DNA from: Minisyncoccota bacterium
Lineage (GTDB): Bacteria > Patescibacteriota > Minisyncoccia > Phycocordibacterales > UBA1006
Assembly: GCA_036405175.1 (NCBI GenBank)
Contig: DASWYC010000002.1
Span: 57,892 to 121,891, forward strand
Direction of reading: 5' to 3'
Length of the DNA: 64,000 nt
In this document: positions 8,885 to 61,302 of the stretch, in pieces
How positions within the stretch are numbered: position 1 is the stretch's first letter
Layout of the letters: the number at the start of each line of letters is the position of its first letter
Program-made: the position numbers and the translations under genes
Notes under the pieces: model-generated
What the model was told of the DNA's origin: nothing
The model's database searches: none
What the model saw: the letters and a program-made list of their open reading frames with translations, nothing else

Positions 8885-10105
8885 CTACTCGTACCGTAGC
8901 GCTTCAATTGGATTTAGCTTAGCAGCACGCTGTGCGGGATAATATCCAAAGATAACACCAATTGCCGTTGAAACACCAAAGGCAAGCAGAATCGAACCAA
9001 ATGAAACATTCGTCTGAAGAATGCCCAGCTTGGTTACGGCAAACGAAACTGCCCAGCCAAATGCCACGCCGATCACGCCGCCGGTAAAGGTGAGCATGAC
9101 TGACTCAATTAAGAACTGGAGACTAATATCTGATCGTTTAGCACCGATTGCTTTGCGGAGTCCAATCTCGCGTGTACGTTCGGTAACCGTGGTGAGCATC
9201 ATATTCATGATGCCAATACCCCCAACCAGTAATGAGATTCCTGCAACGGCTGCTAAGAGTGTGGTGAATGTTCCAGTCACGCTTGATGCGGTTGCAATAA
9301 TATCTGATTGGTTGAGGGTTGAAAAATCTGCTGCGGATGGATCAGAAATCTTGTGGCGTGTGAGCAGGAGATTGGTAACGTCATTTTGCACTTGAGTAGT
9401 TATTTCAGAGTTTTCTGCAGAAATATCAATTTCGCTCAAGAACTTATTCCCGGTTAAATAATGTTGTGCAACAGTGTAGGGGACATAAATCGTATCATCA
9501 GCATTAGAAAATCCAGACCCCCCTTTGCTTGCGGTGATTCCAATAATTCTAAAGGTGATACCATTGATGCGAATACTTTCTCCTAATGGTTCTGGGTTTT
9601 CTGGAAAAAGATCTTCTGCTGTGGTTGGTCCAATTACGGCAACTTTTGATGCACTATTTACATGAGCATCGCTAAAGAAAGTTCCCGTTGCAACTGACAC
9701 ATTGCGCACGGCAGTGTAGCTTGGGGTGGTGCCAATAATACTCGTGTTAGTATTGGTTCCTTTTGCAATGACTTGTTGGCGAGAAGAAACAACAAATGCA
9801 ATACTACCAATGTTTTCAACTTGGTTTTCAATCGCTTCGCCATCTTCTACGGTAAGTGATTGACCGCCACCACGTCCTGCGCTTGGTCCACCAAAACTAC
9901 GCTGAGCACCAGGCATAATCATAATGAGATTTGATCCAATAGATTGAATACTTGATTCAATAGATTTCTGTGCACCTGCACCAATTGCCGTCATTGCAAT
10001 CACCGAGCTAATACCAATAATCACACCAAGCATGGTAAGTCCGGTGCGGACTTTATTGGCCATCAGTGATGAGTATGTTTCGTGGAGAATATCTTGCGTA
10101 GTCAT
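8885..10105 (-). CDS. ABC transporter permease, MacB/FtsX family
   Basis: N-terminal TM helix, large periplasmic domain, C-terminal FtsX-like 3-TM bundle. Start reassigned to MTTQD (ATG at 10105..10103), 1 nt after the ATPase stop. Confidence 0.75.
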   Translation of the reverse strand: MTTQDILHETYSSLMANKVRTGLTMLGVIIGISSVIAMTAIGAGAQKSIESSIQSIGSNLIMIMPGAQRSFGGPSAGRGGGQSLTVEDGEAIENQVENIGSIAFVVSSRQQVIAKGTNTNTSIIGTTPSYTAVRNVSVATGTFFSDAHVNSASKVAVIGPTTAEDLFPENPEPLGESIRINGITFRIIGITASKGGSGFSNADDTIYVPYTVAQHYLTGNKFLSEIDISAENSEITTQVQNDVTNLLLTRHKISDPSAADFSTLNQSDIIATASSVTGTFTTLLAAVAGISLLVGGIGIMNMMLTTVTERTREIGLRKAIGAKRSDISLQFLIESVMLTFTGGVIGVAFGWAVSFAVTKLGILQTNVSFGSILLAFGVSTAIGVIFGYYPAQRAAKLNPIEALRYE

Positions 10106-19926: not shown

Positions 19927-22900
19927 ATGAAACAGCCTGACCTGAGCAAGTATTTTGAAGGATTTGAAAAATCTAAGCGTTCGCACGATGAGGAAAATAT
20001 CCTCAATTTTTGGCAAGAAAATCAAATCTTTGAACAATCACTTAAAAAACCATCACCAAAAGGAGAGTATGTTTTTTATGAAGGTCCTCCAACGGCAAAC
20101 GGCCGTCCAGGAATTCACCACTTTTTAGCACGCTCATTTAAAGATGCAATTCCTCGCTATAAAACAATGCAAGGATATCATGTAGCGCGTAAGGCTGGTT
20201 GGGATACACACGGTCTTCCTGTTGAACTTCAGGTAGAAAAAGCGCTTGGGTTGGCTAATAAAAAAGAAATTGAACAATACGGTGTAGAAAAGTTTAATGA
20301 AGCGTGTAAAGAATCAGTGTGGCAGTATCAGTCTGAGTGGGAAGCTATGACCGCCCGCATGGGGTATTGGATTGATATGGAAAATCCATATATCACCTAT
20401 GAGACTCCATATATTGAATCAGTATGGAATATCCTTAAGACAGTTGATGACAAGCAGCTTCTCTTTAAGGATTACAAAATTATTCCATGGTGTCCTCGTT
20501 GTGGAACGGGACTTTCTTCTCATGAGCTTTCACAGGGTTATGAAGATGTAAAAGATATCTCAGTAACAGCAGCATTTAAAGTGACGGGCTCAATTGTTAA
20601 TCTTCCAGAAAATACTTCTATTCTTGCATGGACAACAACACCGTGGACGCTCTTTGGAAACGTTGCGCTTGCCGTAGGAAATACTATTAATTATGTTCTC
20701 GTTCAAGATAGTTCACGTGACAATGCACACTTTATTATCGCTGAAGATCGTTTAAGTTTTGCATATCCTGATCAATCAATAATTAAGGTTATTGGAACGT
20801 ATACAGGAAGTGAATTGGTTGGCACAAAGTATCAACCATTGTTTCCATATGCTGCAGAGTTTATTCAATCACAAACAACTCCTGAACAATTTTCAAAAGC
20901 ATACACGGTATACGATGCAGATTTTGTAACAACCAGTGACGGAACGGGTGTTGTCCACACTGCAGTAATGTATGGAGCTGACGATTTTGATCTTGGTACA
21001 AAATTAGGATTGCCAAAAGTTCATATGGTAAACCAAGACGGAACGTACAAAGAGGGTCTTAAAGATTTTACCGGACGATTTGTTAAAGACGAGCAGGTGA
21101 CCATTGATATTCTCAAAGAACTCACTGTATATAATTCTCTTTTTTCAAAACTCAAGTACGAACACTCATATCCTCACTGTTGGCGCTGTAAAACGCCGGT
21201 GCTGTATTACGCGCGTGACTCATGGTTTATTAGAATGTCTCAACTTGCAGACACGTTGCAGCAAGAAAATGAAAAGATTAATTGGAATCCAAGCCACATC
21301 AAAGAGGGGCGTTTTGGAGAATGGCTCCGTGGTCTTAAAGACTGGGGATTGTCTCGCGAACGGTATTGGGGAACACCACTTCCAATTTGGGAATCAGAAG
21401 AGGGTGGACGGATTACGGTGGGTTCACTTGAAGAGTTAAAAACATATTCAACAAAACCAACCGTTGATCTTATTTTGATTCGTCACGGGTTTGCAACTCA
21501 TTTGCGTGACGGAATCTTTGCCGGTGATCGTGCAAACGATACCGCAACACTTACTGAAGAAGGAATTAAACAGGTACAAGAGCTTGCAAATACGTGTGGC
21601 GATACTATTAAATCTGCTGACGTGATTTTTGTTAGTCCATTTAAGCGTACGCAGGAAACCATTACAATCTTGCAGGATGCGCTTGGTCTTACTCAAGAAG
21701 TTATTGTTGATGATCGTTTAGTTGAAATGAATTTTGGAGCATTTAATGGTAAGAAAAACTCAGAACGCGATGGCTACTTTGATAATGATCAGTACACTAA
21801 AGCAAATCCAGAAGGTGAATCACTCTTTGACGTGCAAAAACGCGTAACGGCGTTCTTGAAAGATGTTGAATCTCAATATGCTGGTAAAAAAGTGATCGTA
21901 ATTAGTCACGATGATACGCTCAGTTTGCTATGTTCTGTTGCACGTGGAATTGTTGATAAAGTTCCTCAGATTCAATATTTTAATCCTGCAGAGTGTCGTA
22001 CCGTAACTTCAACAAATTTGCCAGTAAGCCATGACGGGTTTGTGGATCTCCATAAGCCATATATTGATAATATTGTGCTCAAAAAAAATGAGCGTATATA
22101 TACACGCGTACCAGAAGTGATTGATGTGTGGTTTGATTCTGGGTCAATGCCATTTGCACAACAGCATGCACCATTTGCTGGGGAGCTTACCAGTGCTCAA
22201 TATCCAGCAGATTACATAACCGAAGGTCTTGATCAAACCCGCGGATGGTTTTATACCTTGCTTGCTATTGGATGTTTGATGGGTAAAGGTTCACCATATA
22301 AGAATGTAATTTGCTTAGGACTTTTGCTTGATGACAAGGGGCAGAAAATGTCTAAATCAAAGGGGAACATTGTGTCGCCATGGAAGGTCATGTCTGGCGT
22401 TGGATCAGATGTTGCCCGCATGTGGTTGTATAGCGTGAACCAGCCAGGAGAATCAAAGAGTTTTGACATGGCAATGTTGCAGGATCTTGAGCGTAAATTG
22501 TTTGTGATCTTTGAAAACTGTTTAGAATTTTATAAGCTTTCACCCGATGTTCAAACATCATACAATGCTGATCTTCTTAAGAATGCATCATACTTGGATA
22601 AATGGTTAATAGCATACATGAATACTGTTAAGAAAATGGTGACCGAATCACTTGATGCATACGATCTTTTCACCGCAACTCGCACCATCCGCGATTGTGT
22701 GACCGAATTGTCTCAATGGTATGTGCGTCGTTCGCGTGAAGCACTTAAAGAAGAAGGGGTAGTTGGGGATGCAACGCGTCATACCTACCGCAATGCACTC
22801 CGCGATATTGCCATAATGTTGGCACCGTTTACCCCATTCCACGCAGAAAAATTCTTCCAAGACGTGAAGTTTGAAAATGACCCAGCGTCAGTACATCTTG

Positions 22901-23406
22901 CTGATTGGGTAATATTTAATACTGATAGTTCATCAGATATCTTGAATGAAATGGATCAGACACGCACTGTGATCTCGGAAATTCTTAAGAAGCGTGACGA
23001 GGTAAAAATTAAAGTACGCCAACCGCTCGCTTCAGTGACACTTAATCGCTCATTTAACATTGAACTTCAAGAACTTATTAAAGATGAGGTAAATGTAAAG
23101 GAAATAAAGGTTGATGAAAATGCGTTTGAAACAACACTTGATACAAATCTCACCCAAGAACTTATTGAGGAAGGAATTGCTCGTGAAATCACGCGTGCTA
23201 TTCAATCAATGCGTAAGAATAATAATCTTTCACCAGATGATGCGTTTACGGTTACACTCCAAGATTCAGAACTCGTGCAAAAGATCCTGGATACCTATGG
23301 TGATGATATCTCAAAGAAAACAAAAACTACTCTTGCAACCGCCGCATCGATTACTGATTCAGAAAAAATTACCACTAATCTTGGCGATATTCTCATTCAA
23401 AAGTAA
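19927..23406 (+). CDS. ileS: isoleucine--tRNA ligase (eukaryote-like type 2) with an inserted histidine-phosphatase (PGAM-like) domain of about 190 aa
   Basis: PTANGRPGIHHF (HIGH), WDTHGLP, KMSKS (GQKMSKSKGN). The insert between ...EELKTYSTKPTVD and LHKPYIDN carries RHG, SPFKRTQET, LVEMNFGAFNG and SHDD motifs. Confidence 0.9.
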   Translation: MKQPDLSKYFEGFEKSKRSHDEENILNFWQENQIFEQSLKKPSPKGEYVFYEGPPTANGRPGIHHFLARSFKDAIPRYKTMQGYHVARKAGWDTHGLPVELQVEKALGLANKKEIEQYGVEKFNEACKESVWQYQSEWEAMTARMGYWIDMENPYITYETPYIESVWNILKTVDDKQLLFKDYKIIPWCPRCGTGLSSHELSQGYEDVKDISVTAAFKVTGSIVNLPENTSILAWTTTPWTLFGNVALAVGNTINYVLVQDSSRDNAHFIIAEDRLSFAYPDQSIIKVIGTYTGSELVGTKYQPLFPYAAEFIQSQTTPEQFSKAYTVYDADFVTTSDGTGVVHTAVMYGADDFDLGTKLGLPKVHMVNQDGTYKEGLKDFTGRFVKDEQVTIDILKELTVYNSLFSKLKYEHSYPHCWRCKTPVLYYARDSWFIRMSQLADTLQQENEKINWNPSHIKEGRFGEWLRGLKDWGLSRERYWGTPLPIWESEEGGRITVGSLEELKTYSTKPTVDLILIRHGFATHLRDGIFAGDRANDTATLTEEGIKQVQELANTCGDTIKSADVIFVSPFKRTQETITILQDALGLTQEVIVDDRLVEMNFGAFNGKKNSERDGYFDNDQYTKANPEGESLFDVQKRVTAFLKDVESQYAGKKVIVISHDDTLSLLCSVARGIVDKVPQIQYFNPAECRTVTSTNLPVSHDGFVDLHKPYIDNIVLKKNERIYTRVPEVIDVWFDSGSMPFAQQHAPFAGELTSAQYPADYITEGLDQTRGWFYTLLAIGCLMGKGSPYKNVICLGLLLDDKGQKMSKSKGNIVSPWKVMSGVGSDVARMWLYSVNQPGESKSFDMAMLQDLERKLFVIFENCLEFYKLSPDVQTSYNADLLKNASYLDKWLIAYMNTVKKMVTESLDAYDLFTATRTIRDCVTELSQWYVRRSREALKEEGVVGDATRHTYRNALRDIAIMLAPFTPFHAEKFFQDVKFENDPASVHLADWVIFNTDSSSDILNEMDQTRTVISEILKKRDEVKIKVRQPLASVTLNRSFNIELQELIKDEVNVKEIKVDENAFETTLDTNLTQELIEEGIAREITRAIQSMRKNNNLSPDDAFTVTLQDSELVQKILDTYGDDISKKTKTTLATAASITDSEKITTNLGDILIQK

Positions 23407-37471: not shown

Positions 37472-37976
37472 TTAATTAACGGGTGTTAGTGAAGGCGTTG
37501 CTTCAGAATCTGTATTAGTAATATCTATAGTATCTTCGCTTTTAGTTTGAGCGTCAATAGCCGGTGTATCAGATTTCTTTGTGACTGATGGTGAAATATA
37601 TGGTTGGCATGGGAATCGGCAATAAAGTCTCAGAATGCGGCGTTTTTGCATTGAGAAAGGATCTTGTAGGTCAATGATGAGGGTATTGTTTCCAGGCGAT
37701 AACAGTATGTCATGCTGGAATGTGCCTTCGGGAGAAAGGGTAATAGGGTATCCATTAATTTGAATACTTTGGGTGCGTTTTGTTGATCCTTCAAGAATCA
37801 CCAAAGGATATTCAAACGCCGTTCCATCCTTAATATTTTCAAAGATTACTTTTGGTGGAAGTATGAGCGAGCGACCTACATATAATACGTATACTGCACC
37901 ACAGATTGATGCAATGACCGTTACTAAAAGTGAAACACGTTGAGCAACTGATTTCTTTTTATTCTTCATCAGCATA
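37472..37976 (-). CDS. hypothetical membrane-anchored protein
   Basis: Start set at MLMKNKKKS, overlapping the ftsK 3' end. Single TM helix plus a beta-rich domain. Confidence 0.4.
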
Positions 37977-40262
37977 TGAACGCTCAATATCTGATCCACG
38001 TGGTCCCATGCCATCAGATTCCTCATTATCATTCATAGAACTACCATTGTTGCCGCCAAGTACCGCACGAGGTTTTGCGCCATCCTGTGGTCCGATAATT
38101 CCTTTGTTTTCTAAGATATCCATTAAGCGTGCCGCACGTGAATAGCCAATCTTAAAGCGGCGCTGCAAATAGCTGGTTGAAGCTTTTCCGGCTTGCATAA
38201 CAACCTGTTTAGCTTCTTCATATAAATCATCATCGGCATCGTCGTCTCCTCCAGTATCACCACCAAACCCGCTTGAGCCACCAGAACTCATACCATCACC
38301 GCTTCCGCCGGTTGGAATAATAATTTGATCGAGTTCTTCGCCATTTTCTTCTTTAATCTGAGCAACAACGGCTTTAAGCTCATCTTCTGAAACGTATGCA
38401 GACTGCAAGCGTTCACCCTTGGCAGACTCTGAGCCAACAAAGAGCATATCTCCAGCACCAAGCAATTTTTCTGCACCCGCAACATCAATAATAGTGCGTG
38501 AGTCAATTTGTGATGCAACTCTAAGCGCAATACGTCCAGGAATGTTTGCTTTGATGAGTCCAGTAATAACATTAACCGATGGGCGCTGTGTTGAAAGAAT
38601 CAAGTGAATCCCAACTGCACGAGACATCTGCGCCAGGCGTACAATTGCAGCTTCAAGTTCGCGAGGGAACGACTGCATAAGATCCGCCATTTCATCAATA
38701 ACAATCACAATATATGCCATACGCTCTGGAAGGTTTGAGGTATCTGATGCATCGTTAATATTTTTGTAGGCAGGCTCAACAATATTGGCATGATATGAAC
38801 CAATATCGCGCACTGAGTTTTCTTCCAAAATATTGTAGCGACGCTCCATTTCTTTAACCGCCCAACGGAGTGCAAAAATAGCTTGTTTTGGATTTTTAAT
38901 TACCGGCGTCAACAAATGCGGGATGTTGTTGTACAGCGTAAGCTCAACACGCTTTGGATCCACCATGATAAAGCGGAGCTTCTTTGGTCCATTGCGGTAG
39001 AGAAGACTGGTAATAATATTATGTACGGCTACAGATTTTCCAGCTCCCGTTGCTCCTGCAACCAACAGGTGAGGGAGCTTTGCAAGATCAGCAAAGTGAT
39101 GCTGACCAGTAATACTTGCTCCAAGTGCAAAGTACAGTGGTTTGTGTGAATTCTTAAATTGAGCGTCCGCTAACATTGATCCAAGTCCAACGAGAGCTTT
39201 TTTGCTGTTTGGAAGTTCGATTCCCACTAATGACTTTCCAGGGATGGGTGCTTCAATGCGAATAGATGAAGCAAGTGCAAGCTCAAGGTTAGCTTGGAGT
39301 CCAACAATTTTTTGAAGACGTGTTCCTTCACGAGGTTTCACTGCAAAACGAGTTACCGTTGGCCCCACATCAATTTCTTCAACTGTTACATCAATATCAA
39401 AGTTCTTGAGGGTGCGCACAATTTCATCACTGCGTGCTTGGGTGTCTTCAATACCAGCTTTCCCAGACGATGTCTTAAGAAGGTTAAGTGCTGGCGGGTT
39501 GTAATCATCAATAAGCGATGTATCTGAGAGGGGAACAAAGGCGGGTGTCTCAGCAATCTTGCCATTCTTTTTTGAAGGAGCTTCGGTGCGCTCTGATTCT
39601 GTTCCGTTTCTAATAATAGGTACAGTGCGCTGACGATCTTCATCAGTGAGCACTACTTCTTCAAGTATGTCATCACCTTCGAGATCTTCTTGGGAAGCTA
39701 CTGCGCGATCACCAAGTGTGGTAATAAATTCAATAAAATTATCCCACCACGATTTGATGGTCTTGTGACGGAGCATGATGATAGCAATGATACCGATAAA
39801 AATTACAACCGATACCAACATGGCACCGTAGAGTCCAAAGAGTGTTTGCGAGATATTCCTCAGCGTGAATCCAAGCGTTCCTCCGGCGGTTGCATTGTTG
39901 GGAAGAAAATCGAGCATGGTTGCAACCGTGGCAAGAAGTACCACCGCAAGTGCGCTATCAATTCCATCAAGCGTACTTTTTTTGGTGAAGAGCAGCTGCG
40001 CACCAATCACTGCGGCGGCAAGTGTTGTGAGGAGGAGTGTACATACTCCAAGAAATTGAATGAGGTATCCGGTAATAAATTCTCCGATGAGTCCTCCGTT
40101 TGAAAGAAGGGAATAAAGAGCAAGTGCGCTGATTAAAAAAAGTACTAATCCGAAGAATCGGATCATGCGCGATTTGGTGATTAAGATTTCAACAGGATCT
40201 TCTTCTGGAAGAGGTTGTTTGCGAGGTCGTCCGGGTTTAGCCATGCATATATTATATATCAT
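37959..40262 (-). CDS. ftsK: DNA translocase FtsK/SpoIIIE
   Basis: N-terminal 4-TM, linker, motor domain with Walker A GATGAGKS, C-terminal gamma (winged-helix) domain. Confidence 0.9.
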   Translation of the reverse strand: MIYNICMAKPGRPRKQPLPEEDPVEILITKSRMIRFFGLVLFLISALALYSLLSNGGLIGEFITGYLIQFLGVCTLLLTTLAAAVIGAQLLFTKKSTLDGIDSALAVVLLATVATMLDFLPNNATAGGTLGFTLRNISQTLFGLYGAMLVSVVIFIGIIAIIMLRHKTIKSWWDNFIEFITTLGDRAVASQEDLEGDDILEEVVLTDEDRQRTVPIIRNGTESERTEAPSKKNGKIAETPAFVPLSDTSLIDDYNPPALNLLKTSSGKAGIEDTQARSDEIVRTLKNFDIDVTVEEIDVGPTVTRFAVKPREGTRLQKIVGLQANLELALASSIRIEAPIPGKSLVGIELPNSKKALVGLGSMLADAQFKNSHKPLYFALGASITGQHHFADLAKLPHLLVAGATGAGKSVAVHNIITSLLYRNGPKKLRFIMVDPKRVELTLYNNIPHLLTPVIKNPKQAIFALRWAVKEMERRYNILEENSVRDIGSYHANIVEPAYKNINDASDTSNLPERMAYIVIVIDEMADLMQSFPRELEAAIVRLAQMSRAVGIHLILSTQRPSVNVITGLIKANIPGRIALRVASQIDSRTIIDVAGAEKLLGAGDMLFVGSESAKGERLQSAYVSEDELKAVVAQIKEENGEELDQIIIPTGGSGDGMSSGGSSGFGGDTGGDDDADDDLYEEAKQVVMQAGKASTSYLQRRFKIGYSRAARLMDILENKGIIGPQDGAKPRAVLGGNNGSSMNDNEESDGMGPRGSDIERSYADEE

Positions 40263-40296
40263 TCGCTCAAGTTAAAACGGATATAAATTCTTACAA

Positions 40297-40427
40297 AATA
40301 ACTCCTGATGAAGCAGCGGATCAAGTCCTATTCTCGGTGTATTTGAGGCACACAATAAAGCAGAGTTTACACACATTAAAAAGTGCCTCAAATACACCTC
40401 CGAAACTGCTTCATCAGGAGTTATTTT
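40297..40427. repeat. 131-bp nested inverted repeat: outer 21-bp perfect stem plus inner 15-bp perfect stem
   Basis: AAATAACTCCTGATGAAGCAG...CTGCTTCATCAGGAGTTATTT and GTGTATTTGAGGCAC...GTGCCTCAAATACAC, seen directly. Confidence 0.6.
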
Positions 40428-40464
40428 ACATGCTACTTTTAGGCAAGAACTGGGCGAATGATAT

Positions 40465-41505
40465 GTGAAATCTATGATCAGAAAGGTTTATTGCACAACA
40501 GGTTTTTATAATGGACATATTGAAATGTCCTTTAAAATATGTAGAATACGAGTAATGGACAAATCACCACTCGCAAATTCTAATGGACAGGATAATCATG
40601 GTAATGGACAAGAAAATGTATGGTTGGAATTTATAACGGACAATAAAGATTTTCTTGTGTCCTTTAGAACGCGTGTCCGTAAGATTTCTTCAGCACTCTA
40701 TATGCTGGGTAACCTTTGGCAGGAAGATGACTTTGGTAAACACTTACATTCGGTGTCCCTTACTATTTTGAGTGCTTCAAAAATTCCTGTAACGGACAAT
40801 CGTCACACTATCATGAATCACTTTATGTCCGTTAAAGAGTCAGTTGAGTATGCATTGTCTCTTATTATCTTTGGCGCAGAAGCAGGACTTCTTGCCACAT
40901 CAAACGTAACCATGATTACGCCGTTTTGCATTGCACTGCTTGGTGACCTCCACGATCTTGAAAATACCCTTCCTGCACTTTTTAATACTTCACGCGTTAA
41001 TAATGCTAAGAGTACTGCTCAAGCGCCAGATGCGAGCGCAGATCTGGCCAACATACTTACTAAGGATCACGGAGATTTCTTTAATCAAGCTGGTTCAGAA
41101 CGCAAAGAAATTCGTGTTCCTGTTCAGCCGCCTACATATATACATACCCCAGCATCAGCAGCAGCTGAAGTTCCTGTGGCTCAAGATATCCACACACTAA
41201 TGTCGCCAACAACGGCTCCGGTTACTGCCCAAGAATTTGTTCAAGCTCGAACCGTTCCAGTTGCTCAAACACAATTGCAACAGCCAGTGCGTACTCGCCA
41301 GGAGGCTACAACTAATCAATATCGGGAAGCTATTTTTGCTGCCATCAAAGCATCAGAACAACAAACACCAAGTGAATTGCAGGCTCAATTTCCAGCATTA
41401 AGCGCAAAGCGTATTCAGCGAGAGCTCCAGCAATTGGTGCAAGAAAAACGGGTCATTAAGAAAGGGGAAAAGCGCTGGGTTTCCTACCATTTGAACGCTT
41501 CATAG
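40465..41505 (+). CDS. hypothetical protein with Q/P/T-rich linker and C-terminal winged-helix-like DNA-binding module
   Basis: C-terminus AKRIQRELQQLVQEKRVIKKGEKRWVSYHL resembles a wHTH. Start uncertain. Confidence 0.35.
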   Translation: MKSMIRKVYCTTGFYNGHIEMSFKICRIRVMDKSPLANSNGQDNHGNGQENVWLEFITDNKDFLVSFRTRVRKISSALYMLGNLWQEDDFGKHLHSVSLTILSASKIPVTDNRHTIMNHFMSVKESVEYALSLIIFGAEAGLLATSNVTMITPFCIALLGDLHDLENTLPALFNTSRVNNAKSTAQAPDASADLANILTKDHGDFFNQAGSERKEIRVPVQPPTYIHTPASAAAEVPVAQDIHTLMSPTTAPVTAQEFVQARTVPVAQTQLQQPVRTRQEATTNQYREAIFAAIKASEQQTPSELQAQFPALSAKRIQRELQQLVQEKRVIKKGEKRWVSYHLNAS

Positions 41506-47968: not shown

Positions 47969-47986
47969 TCTTAATCTCTTGAACAA

Positions 47987-48014
47987 AAAGCACTCAGTAC
48001 TGAGTGCTTTTTGT
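47987..48014 (+). terminator. rho-independent terminator (AAAGCACTCAGT / ACTGAGTGCTTT + T-tract)
   Basis: Perfect palindrome. Confidence 0.75.
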
Positions 48015-55315: not shown

Positions 55316-55321
55316 AATTCT

Positions 55322-55447
55322 TTGACTCGAAACTTTTTCATTCACAGTGGCCTCTATTGGGCCTACGCTCGACGATTCGATATATTCGCCCAATGAGCTC
55401 ATCATCGGTCGTCTCCGCGACTGCTCATTCAAAAAGTTTCGAGTCAA
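55322..55447. repeat. 126-bp element bounded by 17-bp perfect inverted repeats (TTGACTCGAAACTTTTT / AAAAAGTTTCGAGTCAA) with an inner 7-bp hairpin (ATTGGGC/GCCCAAT)
   Basis: Seen directly. Confidence 0.5.
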
Positions 55448-55610
55448 ACTCAATCTGGGAAATGTCTTATAGAATATCTCGATCACATACTTTCAAGACA
55501 GTCTCGGAGACATATAAAAAGCACCGTCGTATGATTATTCATTAATGAGGTGCTTTTTATATGTTGAGAATAGGGCTTGACCCGCTGTCTTGAAAGTATG
55601 TGATAAAAAC

Positions 55611-56063
55611 CTACTCACTTTCAGCAACGCGCACAATCAACTTCTTTCCAAACCCAAAGTATTGTCCGGCATTTAAGAAGATAAGCGAAAGCAAAATCAG
55701 AATATAAAAGATATATTCAGAAATAAAGAGTGAGCCGTTCGTTAAAAATGGGAATTTTTCAATGAGGGGAATGTAATAAAGTGTTACCGCAACGATTCCA
55801 AAAATAGATGCAAGGCGCGTACTAAATCCAATAATCAAACAAACACCCAGCACAAGAATTCCCCAAGAATTCAAAAAGTGTACCCATTCAAGAATATCAG
55901 GTGTGGTAAACCAGCTATAAAGTGATTCAAATGTATTCGTACGTTGAATATAGGGAACAGCACTCCATGTTTTGTCAGAAATATGCAACCATCCATTCCA
56001 CGCAAATAACCACCCCATACAAATACGGAGTGTTGCAATGAGCCAAGTAGGAAGACTATTCAT
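55611..56063 (-). CDS. DoxX-family membrane protein
   Basis: 4-TM protein with RICMGWLFAWNG pattern typical of DoxX. Confidence 0.55.
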   Translation of the reverse strand: MNSLPTWLIATLRICMGWLFAWNGWLHISDKTWSAVPYIQRTNTFESLYSWFTTPDILEWVHFLNSWGILVLGVCLIIGFSTRLASIFGIVAVTLYYIPLIEKFPFLTNGSLFISEYIFYILILLSLIFLNAGQYFGFGKKLIVRVAESE

Positions 56064-56184
56064 AAAAATAGTATAGCACTCGTCAATATCTAAGAATGTG
56101 CGGAATACAAATAATTATTGACATAATACTATATATGTGATATATTATTTCAAAATATTTTGCTACTTAAAACTTTGAAAAACA

Positions 56185-56775
56185 ATGGAAAAAAATACTC
56201 TTGGGATTATTGCAGGGTGCATTGCACTCTCAGCTTTCGTACCTTTTACCTATGCGATATTAAAAGGACCAGCTAAGCCAAGTATCGTCACGTGGGGTAC
56301 TTGGGTGGTAGTAAATATTTTACTACTTAAAAGTTATCACGATAACGGAGCGTACAGTACTCTTTGGATGCCTAAGGCATTTCTTCTGGGTGATATTATT
56401 ATCTGCATTCTTTCAATTAGGTTTGGAGAACGGAAGATCTCCAGAATTGATAAAGCAGTTATTGCAGTCACTATTCTTAATATTGCAGGTATCATATTCT
56501 ATAAATATGACAAAGAGGTGGTATTAATGCTCTCAGTTATCGCGCTCGCAATTGGAGGTGTCCCAACAATGATAAAATCTTGGAAACGTCCGTACAACGA
56601 GGATAAATGGGTGTGGTCAATCTTTGGTTTGGGAGCAATCCTTAATCTTGTTGCAGTTGAAGATTGGTCGCATTGGCAAATCTTTGCTCATCCATTATAT
56701 GCAGTATGCGTAGATGTGACAATTGCTATTATCCTTTGGCTAAGAAGTGGCGTCAAAAGACCATTAGTCGCCTAA
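56185..56775 (+). CDS. hypothetical polytopic membrane protein
   Basis: 196 aa, about 6 TM helices. Confidence 0.4.
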   Translation: MEKNTLGIIAGCIALSAFVPFTYAILKGPAKPSIVTWGTWVVVNILLLKSYHDNGAYSTLWMPKAFLLGDIIICILSIRFGERKISRIDKAVIAVTILNIAGIIFYKYDKEVVLMLSVIALAIGGVPTMIKSWKRPYNEDKWVWSIFGLGAILNLVAVEDWSHWQIFAHPLYAVCVDVTIAIILWLRSGVKRPLVA

Positions 56776-56845
56776 AAGATGACATTATTAAAAAGCCTTC
56801 TTCTGGATAAGAGGGCTTTTGTGTTGAAAGGATGTTTGCACGGGG

Positions 56846-57469
56846 TTAAAGTTTCTCAATAATTTTTTTGAGTCCTTTAATAGAATGCGCTATATATTTA
56901 TGCGGTGAATTTTTGAGACGCTTCACACCATGAAGTCCCCACGTTACAACAATAATTTTTTCAACACCGAATTCATAAGCTTCAAGCGCATCGCCACGAG
57001 TGTCGGTAACAAAAATTAATTCGCTTGGCTGTATTCCAAATTGTTCACAAATCATTCTAAACTTTTCAACCTTTGACGCATGAGTTTCTTTGCCGCCAAT
57101 AAATGAAAAACCTGAACTGATGCCGTGATGATTAAGACAAGCAATCACGGGTTCTTCATAACAGGACGTATTGAGTGTGATTGTGTTATCTTTAGAAATA
57201 TTATGAATGAATTCGGCTGCTCCTGCAAACAGCTTTACGGTTTTAATAGCCTTCAGATAGTTTTGAAAACGTGTTTGAAATTCTTCAGGAGATACCGGAA
57301 TTTCTTGATGGCCAGTAGACCCTATATGTTTCCAGTAGTTACCATCATGAACTTTCTGAAAATCTCTGAACGTCATAGTAGGTGAACAGGCTTTTCTGTA
57401 CGGCCAGTGAAGGTGATACGAATCAGCCAAAACGCCATCCCAATCAAAACAGATAACCTTTCTTTTCAT
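56846..57469 (-). CDS. HAD-superfamily hydrolase
   Basis: Motif I FDWDGVL (DxD) at the N-terminus; HAD fold length. Confidence 0.7.
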   Translation of the reverse strand: MKRKVICFDWDGVLADSYHLHWPYRKACSPTMTFRDFQKVHDGNYWKHIGSTGHQEIPVSPEEFQTRFQNYLKAIKTVKLFAGAAEFIHNISKDNTITLNTSCYEEPVIACLNHHGISSGFSFIGGKETHASKVEKFRMICEQFGIQPSELIFVTDTRGDALEAYEFGVEKIIVVTWGLHGVKRLKNSPHKYIAHSIKGLKKIIEKL

Positions 57470-57523
57470 TATCTAAAGCGTAACACAAAAAATATAACCG
57501 AACGAATCGGTTATATTTTCTTG

Positions 57524-57595
57524 AGGCGTGAGCGGGAATCGAACCCGCGCATATCGGTTTTGCAGACCGCTGCGTTTCCACTTCGCCATCACGCC
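57524..57595 (-). tRNA. tRNA-Cys (GCA)
   Basis: Hand-folded. Acceptor GGCGTGA/TCACGCC, anticodon loop CTGCAAA, T-arm GCGGGTTCGATTCCCGC. A terminator hairpin (57490..57520) lies downstream on the minus strand. Confidence 0.8.
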
Positions 57596-57619
57596 GTTAA
57601 ACTAGTGACCTAGTTTTTG

Positions 57620-57701
57620 TGCCCAGGAAAGGACTTGAACCTTCATACCTCGCGGTGCTTGCTCCTAAGGCAAGTGCGTCTACCAATTTCGCCACCTGGG
57701 C
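57620..57701 (-). tRNA. tRNA-Leu (TAG), class II with long variable arm
   Basis: Hand-folded. Acceptor GCCCAGG/CCTGGGC, anticodon loop CTTAGGA, 13-nt variable arm. Confidence 0.8.
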
Positions 57702-57818
57702 ATATTTGTGGCTTGCTTCTTCGAGATAATTCTCAAAATCGCATGGTAATACTGTACCATATTGCAGGATTTTTTCACCTTTTTAGCGTTCGACACAATT
57801 AAGACTTTGTAAAGATTA

Positions 57819-57847
57819 TTGACTTTCTGCTTAAAAAACAGTAAATT
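57819..57847 (+). promoter_or_regulatory. sigma70-like promoter: TTGACT, 17-nt spacer, TAAATT. The -10 ends 8 nt before the ATG, giving a probable leaderless mRNA.
   Basis: Hexamers and spacing seen directly. Confidence 0.45.
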
Positions 57848-57855
57848 CATGAAGT

Positions 57856-58362
57856 ATGAAACAACTTGATCCAAAGGCAGTCTGGTTTTTCTTTATTAAT
57901 TCTATTTTGCGCGCAATAATTCCAGCAATTATTGTAGCTAGTTGGGTGCTAGAGCTTTTATCTGGTTCTGTTGAAAATGGTGAAACTTCACTAAAGGTTT
58001 TTAATTGGCTTTGGCTGATTGTTCCAGTATTTTTTGCTTTGTGCTATGGTTGGGCAAAACTTACATATCGTTTCTATCGTTATGAACTTCTCGATTCAGG
58101 ATTTCGTAAAGAATCAGGGGTAATCTACAAAAAATACGTTACGATTCCATATGATCGAATTCAAAACGTTGATATTAACCGAGGAATTTTAGCTCGCATT
58201 CTTGGACTTTCTGATCTTAATATTCAAACCGCTGGAATGGGGGCAGCAACTATTGGCGGCGGTGCAGAGGGGCGGCTTCCTGCAGTTTCTAAGGAAGACG
58301 GTGAAAAGCTTCGAGATGAATTGATTCAGCGAACTCGCCAGTCTAAAAATCAGGGACTCTAA
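57856..58362 (+). CDS. membrane protein with bacterial PH domain (bPH_2/YdbS-like, PF03703-like)
   Basis: Two TM helices then VTIPYDRIQNVDINRGILARILGLSDLNIQTAG, typical of bPH_2. Confidence 0.6.
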   Translation: MKQLDPKAVWFFFINSILRAIIPAIIVASWVLELLSGSVENGETSLKVFNWLWLIVPVFFALCYGWAKLTYRFYRYELLDSGFRKESGVIYKKYVTIPYDRIQNVDINRGILARILGLSDLNIQTAGMGAATIGGGAEGRLPAVSKEDGEKLRDELIQRTRQSKNQGL

Positions 58363-58465
58363 GGTTTTAAGAAAGAAATTTGAAGCATGGAATATGAGTC
58401 CGGCAAACCAGCCGGGCTTTTATTCTATTCCAATTTTCAGAAAATATAGTATTATAGTCATATTC

Positions 58466-58538
58466 GCGCTAATAGCTCAGTCGGTAGAGCAGCTGCCTCT
58501 TAAGCAGACGGTCGAAGGTTCGAGCCCTTCTTGGCGCA
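58466..58538 (+). tRNA. tRNA-Lys (CTT)
   Basis: Hand-folded. GCGCTAATAGCTCAGTCGGTAGAGC..., anticodon loop CTCTTAA, T-arm GAAGGTTCGAGCCCTTC. Confidence 0.85.
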
Positions 58539-58560
58539 CATAATATAATAGATAGTACAA

Positions 58561-58594
58561 CAAACCCCACCTGTAATAAGGTGGGGTTTGTTGT
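58561..58594 (+). terminator. rho-independent terminator (CAAACCCCACC / GGTGGGGTTTG + T-rich)
   Basis: Perfect 11-bp stem after the tRNA-Lys. Confidence 0.7.
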
Positions 58595-58786
58595 GGAAAT
58601 TGACAGATATAAGATCACGATGTAATATTTTCTTAATCGCTATTTCCTACACAATTTAAAGATTCTACTTAATTTGTTTAAATACTTCTTATAAGTATTT
58701 AGTAAATAGGTTAGAGCACGAAAAATCGGAATCCTTGCCACTATTACTTAGAGGCAGGGATTTTCATTTTAATTTATAATTATCCT

Positions 58787-60612: not shown

Positions 60613-61302
60613 ATGATCAATACGACCGCACTCGAGAAAATTATCGGAACAAAGATTAAGGATCAAGATCTCTATACTCAGGCATTTACGCACCGTTCGT
60701 TTATTAATGAACATCCTCATTTGGGGCTTTCGCATAATGAACGTCTTGAGTTTTTAGGTGATGCTGTTTTGGAATTAGTGGCAACTCATGCGCTCTTTTT
60801 ACAATATCCAAAACATCCAGAAGGGCAATTAACGGCCTTTAGAAGTGCGATTGTTCGCACGGAATCTATTTCAGAAAGTGCTCGTGAAATTGGTTTAAAT
60901 GATTTTCTTCTCCTTTCAAAAGGTGAATCACGTGATACAGGGAAGGCTCGTGACTATATTTTGGCAAATACCTATGAGGCGTTGATTGGTGCAATTTACT
61001 TGGATGCCGGCTATGAAGCTGCATCTGCGTTTATTAAAAACACTTTGCTTCATAAAGTTGAAGGGGTAGTAGAAGGAGGATTATGGCGCGATCCAAAATC
61101 ATACACGCAAGAGAAAGCGCAGGAGCAATTTAATGTGACACCAATGTATAAAAGTCTTAAAGACGAAGGGCCTGATCACGATAAAATATTTACCGTTGGA
61201 GTATTCTTTGGTGAGAAAGAGGTTGCGCGTGGGGTAGGAAAGTCTAAACAAGATGCCGAGCAGGCTGCGGCACGCAAAGCGATTGAGATGTTTAATTGGT
61301 AA
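60613..61302 (+). CDS. rnc: ribonuclease III
   Basis: Signature ERLEFLGDAVLELV and a C-terminal dsRBD. Confidence 0.9.
   Translation: MINTTALEKIIGTKIKDQDLYTQAFTHRSFINEHPHLGLSHNERLEFLGDAVLELVATHALFLQYPKHPEGQLTAFRSAIVRTESISESAREIGLNDFLLLSKGESRDTGKARDYILANTYEALIGAIYLDAGYEAASAFIKNTLLHKVEGVVEGGLWRDPKSYTQEKAQEQFNVTPMYKSLKDEGPDHDKIFTVGVFFGEKEVARGVGKSKQDAEQAAARKAIEMFNW

Follow-up and report, generated by a model that had tools for sequence, protein, structure and literature searches.

A family of nested palindromic repeats with a conserved junction core in intergenic spacers of a Minisyncoccota bacterium and a close relative

Element A is one copy of a small repeat family

A nested hairpin, here called element A, lies between ftsK and a divergently oriented gene in a 64,000-nt stretch of the genome of a Minisyncoccota bacterium (assembly GCA_036405175.1, contig DASWYC010000002.1, positions 57,892 to 121,891 of the forward strand; this whole stretch is referred to below as the window). 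With moderate confidence, we interpret A as one copy of a lineage-restricted, non-coding and non-autonomous family of selfish palindromic repeats, similar in kind to the ERIC (enterobacterial repetitive intergenic consensus), REP (repetitive extragenic palindromic) and RPE (Rickettsia palindromic element) sequences. Seven copies were compared: A, B and C in the window, D just outside it, and A' (the orthologue of A), C' and D' in a relative with 91–93% protein identity. They are 115–133 nt long, all intergenic, and only 55–75% alike. The window genome thus holds 4 copies in ~87 kb; multiple copies had been named in the original prediction as the outcome that would favour a MITE (miniature inverted-repeat transposable element) over a regulatory RNA.

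We call canonical the strand on which the conserved core of a copy has the orientation of the family, which is the minus strand in A and C and the plus strand in B and D. The parts of A are as follows:

40295..40427, minus strand (canonical, the ftsK-sense strand): element A, an AB-type family member, found by inverted-repeat search, fold and covariance model
40295..40316: outer stem, left arm, 22 nt, 100% complementary to 40406-40427
40317..40335, minus strand: junction, canonical 3' side, GAGAAUA, mini-hairpin GGA-CUUGA-UCC and G (plus strand CGGATCAAGTCCTATTCTC), found by recurrence of a 19-mer
40336..40351: inner stem, left arm, 16 nt, 100% complementary to 40383-40398
40352..40382: apical loop, 31 nt, the least conserved part in comparison with the 93% relative
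40383..40398: inner stem, right arm, 16 nt
40399..40405, minus strand: junction, canonical 5' side, UUUCGGA (plus strand TCCGAAA), the UUC of which pairs with the GAA of the 3' side
40406..40427: outer stem, right arm, 22 nt

Each arm is one base longer than originally predicted (22 and 16 nt instead of 21 and 15), with the position and the 31-nt loop as described. The outer stem of A is the longest inverted repeat of the 64-kb window, and its arm has no other match there at up to 3 mismatches (chance expectation 0). When a 156-nt region around A was folded as RNA, energies of −63.5 kcal/mol (z −10.9) on the plus strand and −68.7 kcal/mol (z −9.75) on the minus strand were obtained, equalled by none of 200 shuffles, so that the rarity by chance that had been proposed for these stems is borne out; folded as DNA, A reaches about −40 kcal/mol on either strand. 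Since the sequence of A is identical in independent Logan assemblies of at least 6 sequencing runs, it is not an assembly artefact; Logan contigs from SRR11449177-88 match the window at 100% identity. A covariance model built from A, A' and B (R1, searched with filters off) scored A at 151.6 bits on the minus strand and 52.6 bits on the plus strand. The other copies found in the window genome and in the relative are:

55482..55604, plus strand: element B, an AB-type paralogue with a 20-bp perfect outer stem, a 16–17-bp inner stem and the core of A, found by window-wide repeat search
55321..55448, minus strand: element C, a C-type paralogue with a perfect outer stem of 18 bp and a core that reads CAG-UCGCGGA...GAGCGUAGG-GGCC/GGCC mini-hairpin-CUG, found by repeat search
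L027:9818-9933, plus strand, 4.7 kb beyond the window end: element D, found with model R1 (30.5 bits)
L020:2763-2876, plus strand: C', a C-like copy in the 91–93% relative, found with model R1 (31.8 bits)
L030:9785-9900, minus strand: D', the counterpart of D in the 91–93% relative, found with model R1 (29.1 bits)

B and C occupy one spacer, between the convergent transketolase and DoxX genes, where they stand head-to-head 33 nt apart. B scored 131.1 bits with model R1; C scored 18.8 bits with R1 and 27.1 bits with a family-wide covariance model (R2), and is matched by the family regular expression. A and the reverse complement of B share the 19-mer CGGRTCAAGYCCTATTCTC at the same structural positions, with a swap of GGA/UCC to GGG/CCC; it has no third occurrence in the window (chance expectation 0.03). 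They also share a (C)TCCGARA motif at equivalent structural positions, while their stems are only ~50–60% alike. The spacers are of every type, being divergent for A, convergent for B, C and C', and co-directional for D, which precedes an LTD-domain gene unrelated to ftsK, and all orientations with respect to the adjacent genes are found among the copies.

The remaining matches of model R1 are simple terminator-like hairpins, and model R2 found no further members in ~160 kb. Scans for exact matches to the AB-type core gave 5 hits in GTDB representative genomes, 4 in JGI metagenomes and 2 in IMG/VR, none of them with a nested hairpin, and an exact scan for the C-type core gave none in IMG/VR; as the hits are at chance level and hairpin-free, the family seems confined to this lineage, within the scope of scans limited to exact matches and to one per large collection. 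Phage and plasmid records searched with BLAST contain nothing similar. The Rfam scan called for in the original prediction returned no family match, either at gathering thresholds or at E≤10, where only generic miRNA-precursor hairpin models appeared (14–27 bits against thresholds of 57–110), and the family is not described in Rfam or in the literature searched.

Two by-products of the motif scans are recorded here. The unrelated JGI contig Ga0315547_1001942, retrieved through a chance motif hit, carries elsewhere a 143-nt nested hairpin (L018:6921-7063; 22 bits with model R1), which might represent an element of comparable type from a different organism. Two IMG/VR viral contigs (L009:2234-2255 and L010:10292-10313) have in common the 22-mer GAGAATAGGGCTTGATCCGTTT, which fits the AB-type core but has no hairpin around it and scores 13.9 bits with model R1; this is probably a coincidence within a shared gene.

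A conserved junction with covarying stems

Each copy consists of an outer stem of 18–24 bp, a strand-asymmetric three-way junction, an inner stem-loop and a mini-hairpin of 3–4 bp. On the canonical strand the order from 5' to 3' is outer arm-(CAG)-U-NNC-G-GA-inner stem-loop-GA-GNN-UA-mini-hairpin-G-(CUG)-outer arm, and the core of the family can be written CAG-UNNCGGA ... GAGNNUAGG-mini-hairpin-CUG. Two subtypes were recognized, AB (GAGAAUAGG) and C (GAGCGUAGG). The short NNC/GNN helix is UUC/GAA in A, CGC/GCG in all C-type copies, and CUC/GAA with one C.A in B; the mini-hairpin varies among GGA/UCC, GGG/CCC, GGCC/GGCC and GGGC/GCCC. The GA dinucleotides that face each other across the junction would form tandem sheared G.A pairs. 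In the C-type copies, moreover, the inner stem retains a bulged A, and CGAYUAU recurs near the apex.

Covariation was assessed on a core alignment (A12) of 59 columns and seven copies, from which the apical parts had been removed. MAFFT misaligned the 3' side of the two subtypes, and the alignment is therefore a composite curated from our own structural parse; with this caveat on the covariation figures, 95.4% of its cells form standard pairs (64% in shuffles), double-sided changes occur in 21 of 25 pairs, and the covariation score reaches 0.943, whereas shuffles give 0.26 (none of 500 as high as 0.943) and slid partners 0.09–0.19. The full stems comprise 234 pairs, of which 227 are Watson-Crick, 4 are G-U on the canonical strand, 1 is A.C and 2 are other mismatches. 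G-U pairs thus make up less than 2% of the stem pairs, which is far below what selection at the RNA level usually tolerates. Such a value is very low for purely RNA-level selection and fits a process at the DNA level that copies one arm from the other.

Filled and empty spacers in related genomes

The window genome was compared with the relative at 91–93% protein identity and with others at 72–75%. All three spacers concerned show presence/absence polymorphism, being filled in the window genome and the 91–93% relative, and short and empty in the 72–75% relatives. The ftsK spacer measures ~310 bp with A, ~340 bp with A' and 71 bp without an element in the 72% relative; that between transketolase and DoxX, 295 or 337 bp in the element-bearing genomes versus 15 bp in the 72–75% relatives; and that of D, 226 or 221 bp versus 61 bp. 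No family member was found in ~40 kb of the 72–75% relatives. Comparison of ftsK upstream regions had been proposed in the original prediction as a means of revealing a mobile element; together, the multiple copies and the presence/absence pattern favour a repeat or mobile element over a regulator specific to ftsK.

A and A' are 94% identical (94–96% when the ftsK-proximal flank of A is included). Their outer stems differ by one compensated A-T to G-C change and one T.G, and the stems also by one G.G; the junction is unchanged, and the loop differs most (4 substitutions and one 2-nt indel). At the transketolase-DoxX spacer, C (minus) and B (plus) of the window genome face a single C-type copy, C' (plus), beside DoxX in the relative, the remainder of whose spacer cannot be aligned to that of the window. 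The outer stem of D' is 19 bp long, perfect, and ~60–65% like that of D by a hand count from alignments. Orientation is opposite between the two species at two of the three shared spacers (D plus and D' minus; C minus and C' plus). The C-type copies are equally alike whether they are at the same site (C-C' 73%, D-D' 69%) or at different sites (C-D' 73%), with an overall range of 58–73%, which fits a burst before the split of the two species.

Two further differences among the genomes were observed. The order of genes around DoxX, a HAD hydrolase, a tRNA cluster, a bPH_2 gene and RNase HII differs between window positions 55611-58600 and L020:2886-6401 of the 91% relative, which indicates local rearrangement beside the B/C spacer. 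The family-less 72–75% relatives carry a different hairpin of 86 nt downstream of a tRNA gene (L023:6350-6435, the same as L032:500-585), with 35-nt arms that are 86% complementary (z −7.4).

Selfish repeat or structured RNA

As a selfish repeat, the family would have entered, or expanded in, the intergenic spacers of the common ancestor of the window genome and the 91–93% relative, and an element would persist because it folds. It may act as a folded single strand, either of DNA, at the replication fork, or of RNA, through read-through transcription, with the junction (short covarying helix, bulged G, tandem G.A/A.G, and (G/A)UAG plus mini-hairpin) as the recognition site of a putative trans-acting protein. 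The arms could be kept perfectly Watson-Crick by replication template switching or by arm-to-arm conversion. Template switching produces perfect stems and one-step compensatory changes and can invert the sequence between arms (PMC8794818, PMC7202029, PMC10710096, PMC13100816), and it would also explain the orientation flips described above.

Several observations weigh against the selfish-repeat interpretation. i) No direct repeat that could be a target-site duplication abuts the arms in the flanks of the seven copies inspected. ii) No terminal sequence is common to the copies, the outer arms of A, B, C and D being unrelated or ~50% alike. iii) No transposase, HUH/Y1, reverse-transcriptase or integrase domain was found when 36 window ORFs were compared with Pfam and Pfam labels were examined over much of the remaining window. 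iv) The 4 copies in ~87 kb are few, all old and diverged, and nothing shows recent movement. v) No outgroup polarises gain and loss, and three losses in the 72–75% lineage are formally as parsimonious as three gains. vi) No polymorphism was seen among the sequencing runs of the strain; the assemblies of several runs have one and the same sequence over B and C, so there is no flipping at a detectable frequency now. vii) A, at 94% identity between species where the C and D copies show ~70%, may be under extra constraint. viii) The core is strand-asymmetric, in each of the seven copies the complement folds 3–9 kcal/mol less stably than the canonical strand, and wobble-type pairs stand 4:1 on the canonical strand, which weakly favours this strand as the one that matters; these three features are also expected of a functional RNA.

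The main rival interpretation, which we consider possible but less likely, is that the copies are genes for structured small non-coding RNAs, or RNA modules on neighbouring transcripts, whose junction binds a protein or ligand while the stems are a mere scaffold free to covary. Such an RNA was among the candidates first proposed for A, and the strand-asymmetric core with its covarying short helix (UUC/GAA versus CGC/GCG) and mini-hairpin speaks for that part of the proposal, as do the bulged A and the apical CGAYUAU motif kept in the C-type copies, the strand preferences in stability and wobbles, and the change of the loop rather than the junction between A and A'. However, the copies have no promoter-like or terminator-like signal in common, and neither Rfam nor the next relatives, which have no family member, lend support. 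The head-to-head arrangement of B and C only 33 nt apart, the orientation flips within the same spacer between close species and the scarcity of G-U among the 234 stem pairs also argue against small RNAs, and perfect duplexes of at least 20 bp would be substrates for RNase III, which is encoded at 60613-61302. An intrinsic terminator was rejected as well, there being no terminator call at any copy and no T run after the arms.

A bolder proposal, to which we attach low confidence, is that the elements represent a new structure-defined class, in which the junction with its tandem G.A pairs and (G/A)UAG-hairpin would be read on the folded single strand, RNA or DNA, by a putative patescibacterial protein, and the ends would be set by pairing and not by sequence. 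The elements would then amount to a mobile element whose termini are specified by structure, or else to protein-binding small RNAs that form a mobile family.

The ftsK spacer and the remaining alternatives

The genes flanking A, and an additional inverted repeat around it, are:

37959..40244, minus strand: ftsK, outside the element, with a probable start at 40244 (Pfam FtsK_SpoIIIE, alpha and gamma domains)
40555..41505, plus strand: hypothetical gene of 316 aa from gene calling, with no Pfam hit and a probable start at 40555 (MDKSP)
40249..40269: third-tier inverted repeat, left arm ATATCATTCGCCC, 21 nt, 81% complementary, overlapping the sequence immediately before the ftsK start
40451..40471: third-tier inverted repeat, right arm GGGCGAATGATAT, pairing with 40249-40269

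The divergent layout first described for ftsK and its neighbour holds, but the gene starts given with it (40262 and 40465) are those of the longest ORFs. The probable ftsK start is the ATG at 40244 (MAKPGRPRK), from which the N-terminus is conserved among relatives, and the start at 40555 is preceded by TTGAAA-16-TAGAAT at 40520-40547; the spacer so corrected is ~310 bp, with A in its middle. The closest FtsK relatives have 93% and 72% identity and the next have 63–65% over two-thirds of the protein and at most 55% over the full length, the named hits among these remaining ones being mostly Patescibacteria (Paceibacteria, Kaiserbacteria and similar).

Three side observations concern this spacer. 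First, −10-like hexamers, TATAAT (within 40226-40262) and TAGAAT (within 40520-40557), lie 6–7 nt before the probable starts of both flanking genes, a spacing that suggests leaderless or near-leaderless mRNAs in this organism. Second, the third tier encloses A and ~25 nt of spacer per side in a 223-bp three-level palindrome, part of a 231-nt fold; in the 93% relative (L011:9801-9820 / 9990-10009) it is 20 nt long and 95% complementary, against 81% in the window, and it has ATTCGCCCAAG in common with a simple hairpin after a SpoU gene (L024:8356-8394). Possibly A inserted into the loop of a hairpin that was there before it. Third, the 93% relative has an extra 46-bp segment (L011:9720-9765) on the far side of A that is missing from the window.

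A cis-regulatory element of ftsK or of the divergent pair, either a 5'-UTR (untranslated region) structure or an operator palindrome, is very unlikely to account for A. It would agree with the position of A, 50 nt upstream of the probable ftsK start with the ftsK-sense strand as the canonical one, with the 94–96% identity of A and its ftsK-proximal flank in the 93% relative, and with the overlap of the third tier with the region just upstream of ftsK. However, homologous elements stand after transketolase, after DoxX and before the unrelated LTD-domain gene, the 71-bp ftsK spacer of the 72% relative has none, and the −10-like TATAAT between the element and the ATG probably leaves A outside the ftsK mRNA. 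The location of A upstream of ftsK is incidental.

Very unlikely, too, is an invertible DNA switch (inverton), in which the outer arms would be invertase sites flipping a promoter-bearing interior. The interior is indeed opposite between species at two of three shared spacers, with the arms still palindromic, but the arm sequences differ between loci and so provide no common invertase site, no recombinase gene was found nearby and no promoter inside the elements, and contigs from several runs of the strain show a single orientation.

A recombination site folded from single-stranded DNA, either dif/Xer-like or attC-like as in integrons, is barely credible. The hairpin with an unpaired centre and extra-helical bases, the size, which is in the attC range, and the ftsK neighbour recall such sites, and a dif-like or segregation locus had been among the first suggestions for A. 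This suggestion has to be abandoned, as the element is multi-copy, lies in unrelated spacers and is missing upstream of ftsK in the next relative, at 72%. No resemblance to the 28-bp dif consensus was seen by eye, no dif-motif search having been run, and the GC skew has no terminus-like inflection at A. As for attC, the R-box (RYYYAAC / GTTRRRY) is partial in A (AAATAAC/GTTATTT), the hairpin base has no AAC/GTT in B, C or D, and no cassette array or integrase was found among the 36 window ORFs compared with Pfam.

A chance palindrome or assembly artefact, for which only the AT-rich composition speaks, can be dismissed in view of the z values of about −10 to −12, the identical independent assemblies, the diverged but structure-preserving copy in another species and the paralogues with the same core.

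Other candidates were examined and rejected. For a self-cleaving ribozyme, the junction strands (7, 7 and 1 nt) misfit the hammerhead core (CUGANGA / GAA / H) when compared by hand, no Rfam ribozyme family matches, and the CUGAUGA in the outer arm of A is not conserved in the other copies. Retron msr/msd, bridge RNA and omega RNA were discarded since no reverse transcriptase, IS110 or TnpB gene is adjacent. The outer arm could have been an inverted copy of the target flank, as AGTTATTTTG (A site) and TGAATA.AAAAG (transketolase-DoxX site) are common to the empty sites and the 3' arms, but shuffled queries score equally well in 9–18% of trials. A kink-turn agrees with the tandem G.A of the junction but not with its bulge, which is 1 nt instead of 3, and the junction was left as an unclassified G.A motif.

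Comparison with known repeat systems

Among the closest parallels to a selfish palindromic repeat of this kind are the ERIC sequences or intergenic repeat units (IRU) of Enterobacteria, imperfect palindromes of ~127 bp. They are of the same size class, non-coding and intergenic, form one long imperfect hairpin, have no obvious terminal repeats with target duplication, and vary in presence between related genomes; neither a function nor a mobilising enzyme is known for them (PMC3184786, PMC2229807). In contrast to ERIC copies, which have a full-length consensus, the copies described here conserve the junction alone, with stems that differ completely; these stems are perfect and nested, with a side hairpin, and the host is a Patescibacterium. 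No resemblance of the element to the ERIC consensus was seen, no ERIC-specific search having been made.

REP sequences and REPINs are also extragenic palindromes, and they are recognised as folded single strands, as is proposed for the family. In three of the four C-type copies the mini-hairpin follows GUAG (GCAG in D', and AUAG in the AB type). GUAG directly 5' of a GC-rich hairpin is what we take to be the REP arrangement; the hairpin here is only 3–4 bp, and the likeness is a lead only. Unlike REPINs, each element has one asymmetric core and not two inverted REPs, and the family copies are few and 58–73% identical, whereas REPINs occur in hundreds of near-identical copies. REPs are mobilised by RAYT (a Y1 HUH transposase), for which we saw no gene in the 87 kb available.

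Bacterial MITEs (Correia/NEMIS, RUP, Nezha and others) are also short, non-coding and multi-copy, with inverted-repeat ends and insertion polymorphism between relatives. The original prediction of a MITE-like element holds as regards copy number and presence/absence. It fails as regards the ends: MITE terminal repeats are family-specific, bound by the transposase and accompanied by target-site duplications, whereas here the arms are unconserved and unrelated between copies, duplications are lacking, and the copies are only 55–75% alike.

RPEs and the hairpin repeats of compact organelle genomes (PMC2800124) resemble the family in being old, diverged palindromes of reduced genomes, retained between species with their structure kept by compensatory change. 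RPEs differ in that they are often in frame inside genes, while all copies of the family are intergenic, and there is no sequence relation. Template-switch hairpins (PMC8794818, PMC10710096, PMC7202029, PMC13100816) have perfect arms, one-step compensation, mirrored indels and inverted interiors, all of which are seen here; template switching is, however, a mutational mechanism and not an element family, and it leaves unexplained the conserved asymmetric junction across loci.

Other observations

The isoleucyl-tRNA synthetase ORF (window 19927-23406, 1159 aa) contains, at residues 515-675 within its catalytic domain, a histidine-phosphatase domain (His_Phos_1), and the leucyl-tRNA synthetase just outside the window (L027:15725-18682) has a NUDIX insert. 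A perfect 32-nt palindrome, ACAAAAAGCACTCAGTACTGAGTGCTTTTTGT, lies at 47983-48014 between convergent genes. Loci L006 and L007 begin at window position 48012, which for L007 is the end of its Logan contig, and this boundary may be a break of the de Bruijn graph and not biology.

Significance

Genomes of the Patescibacteria (candidate phyla radiation, CPR) are tiny and tightly packed, and to our knowledge few repeats or non-coding RNAs have been described in them. The family is confined to two closely related uncultivated genomes and has few copies, but its addition of 220–320 bp to spacers that measure 15–71 bp in close relatives clearly exemplifies the invasion of a streamlined genome by non-coding DNA. 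Its mixture of a conserved three-way-junction core, unrelated yet perfect stems and flipping interiors is unusual among bacterial small repeats. For annotation, the hairpin should not be read as a regulatory signal of ftsK or as a dif-like site. The family also provides a clean natural example of what template-switch models predict, namely long stems that diverge completely and stay perfectly Watson-Crick while the interior flips between species. Should a protein turn out to recognise the junction, this would suggest that the phylum has an uncharacterised enzyme specific for single strands, or an uncharacterised RNA-binding protein.

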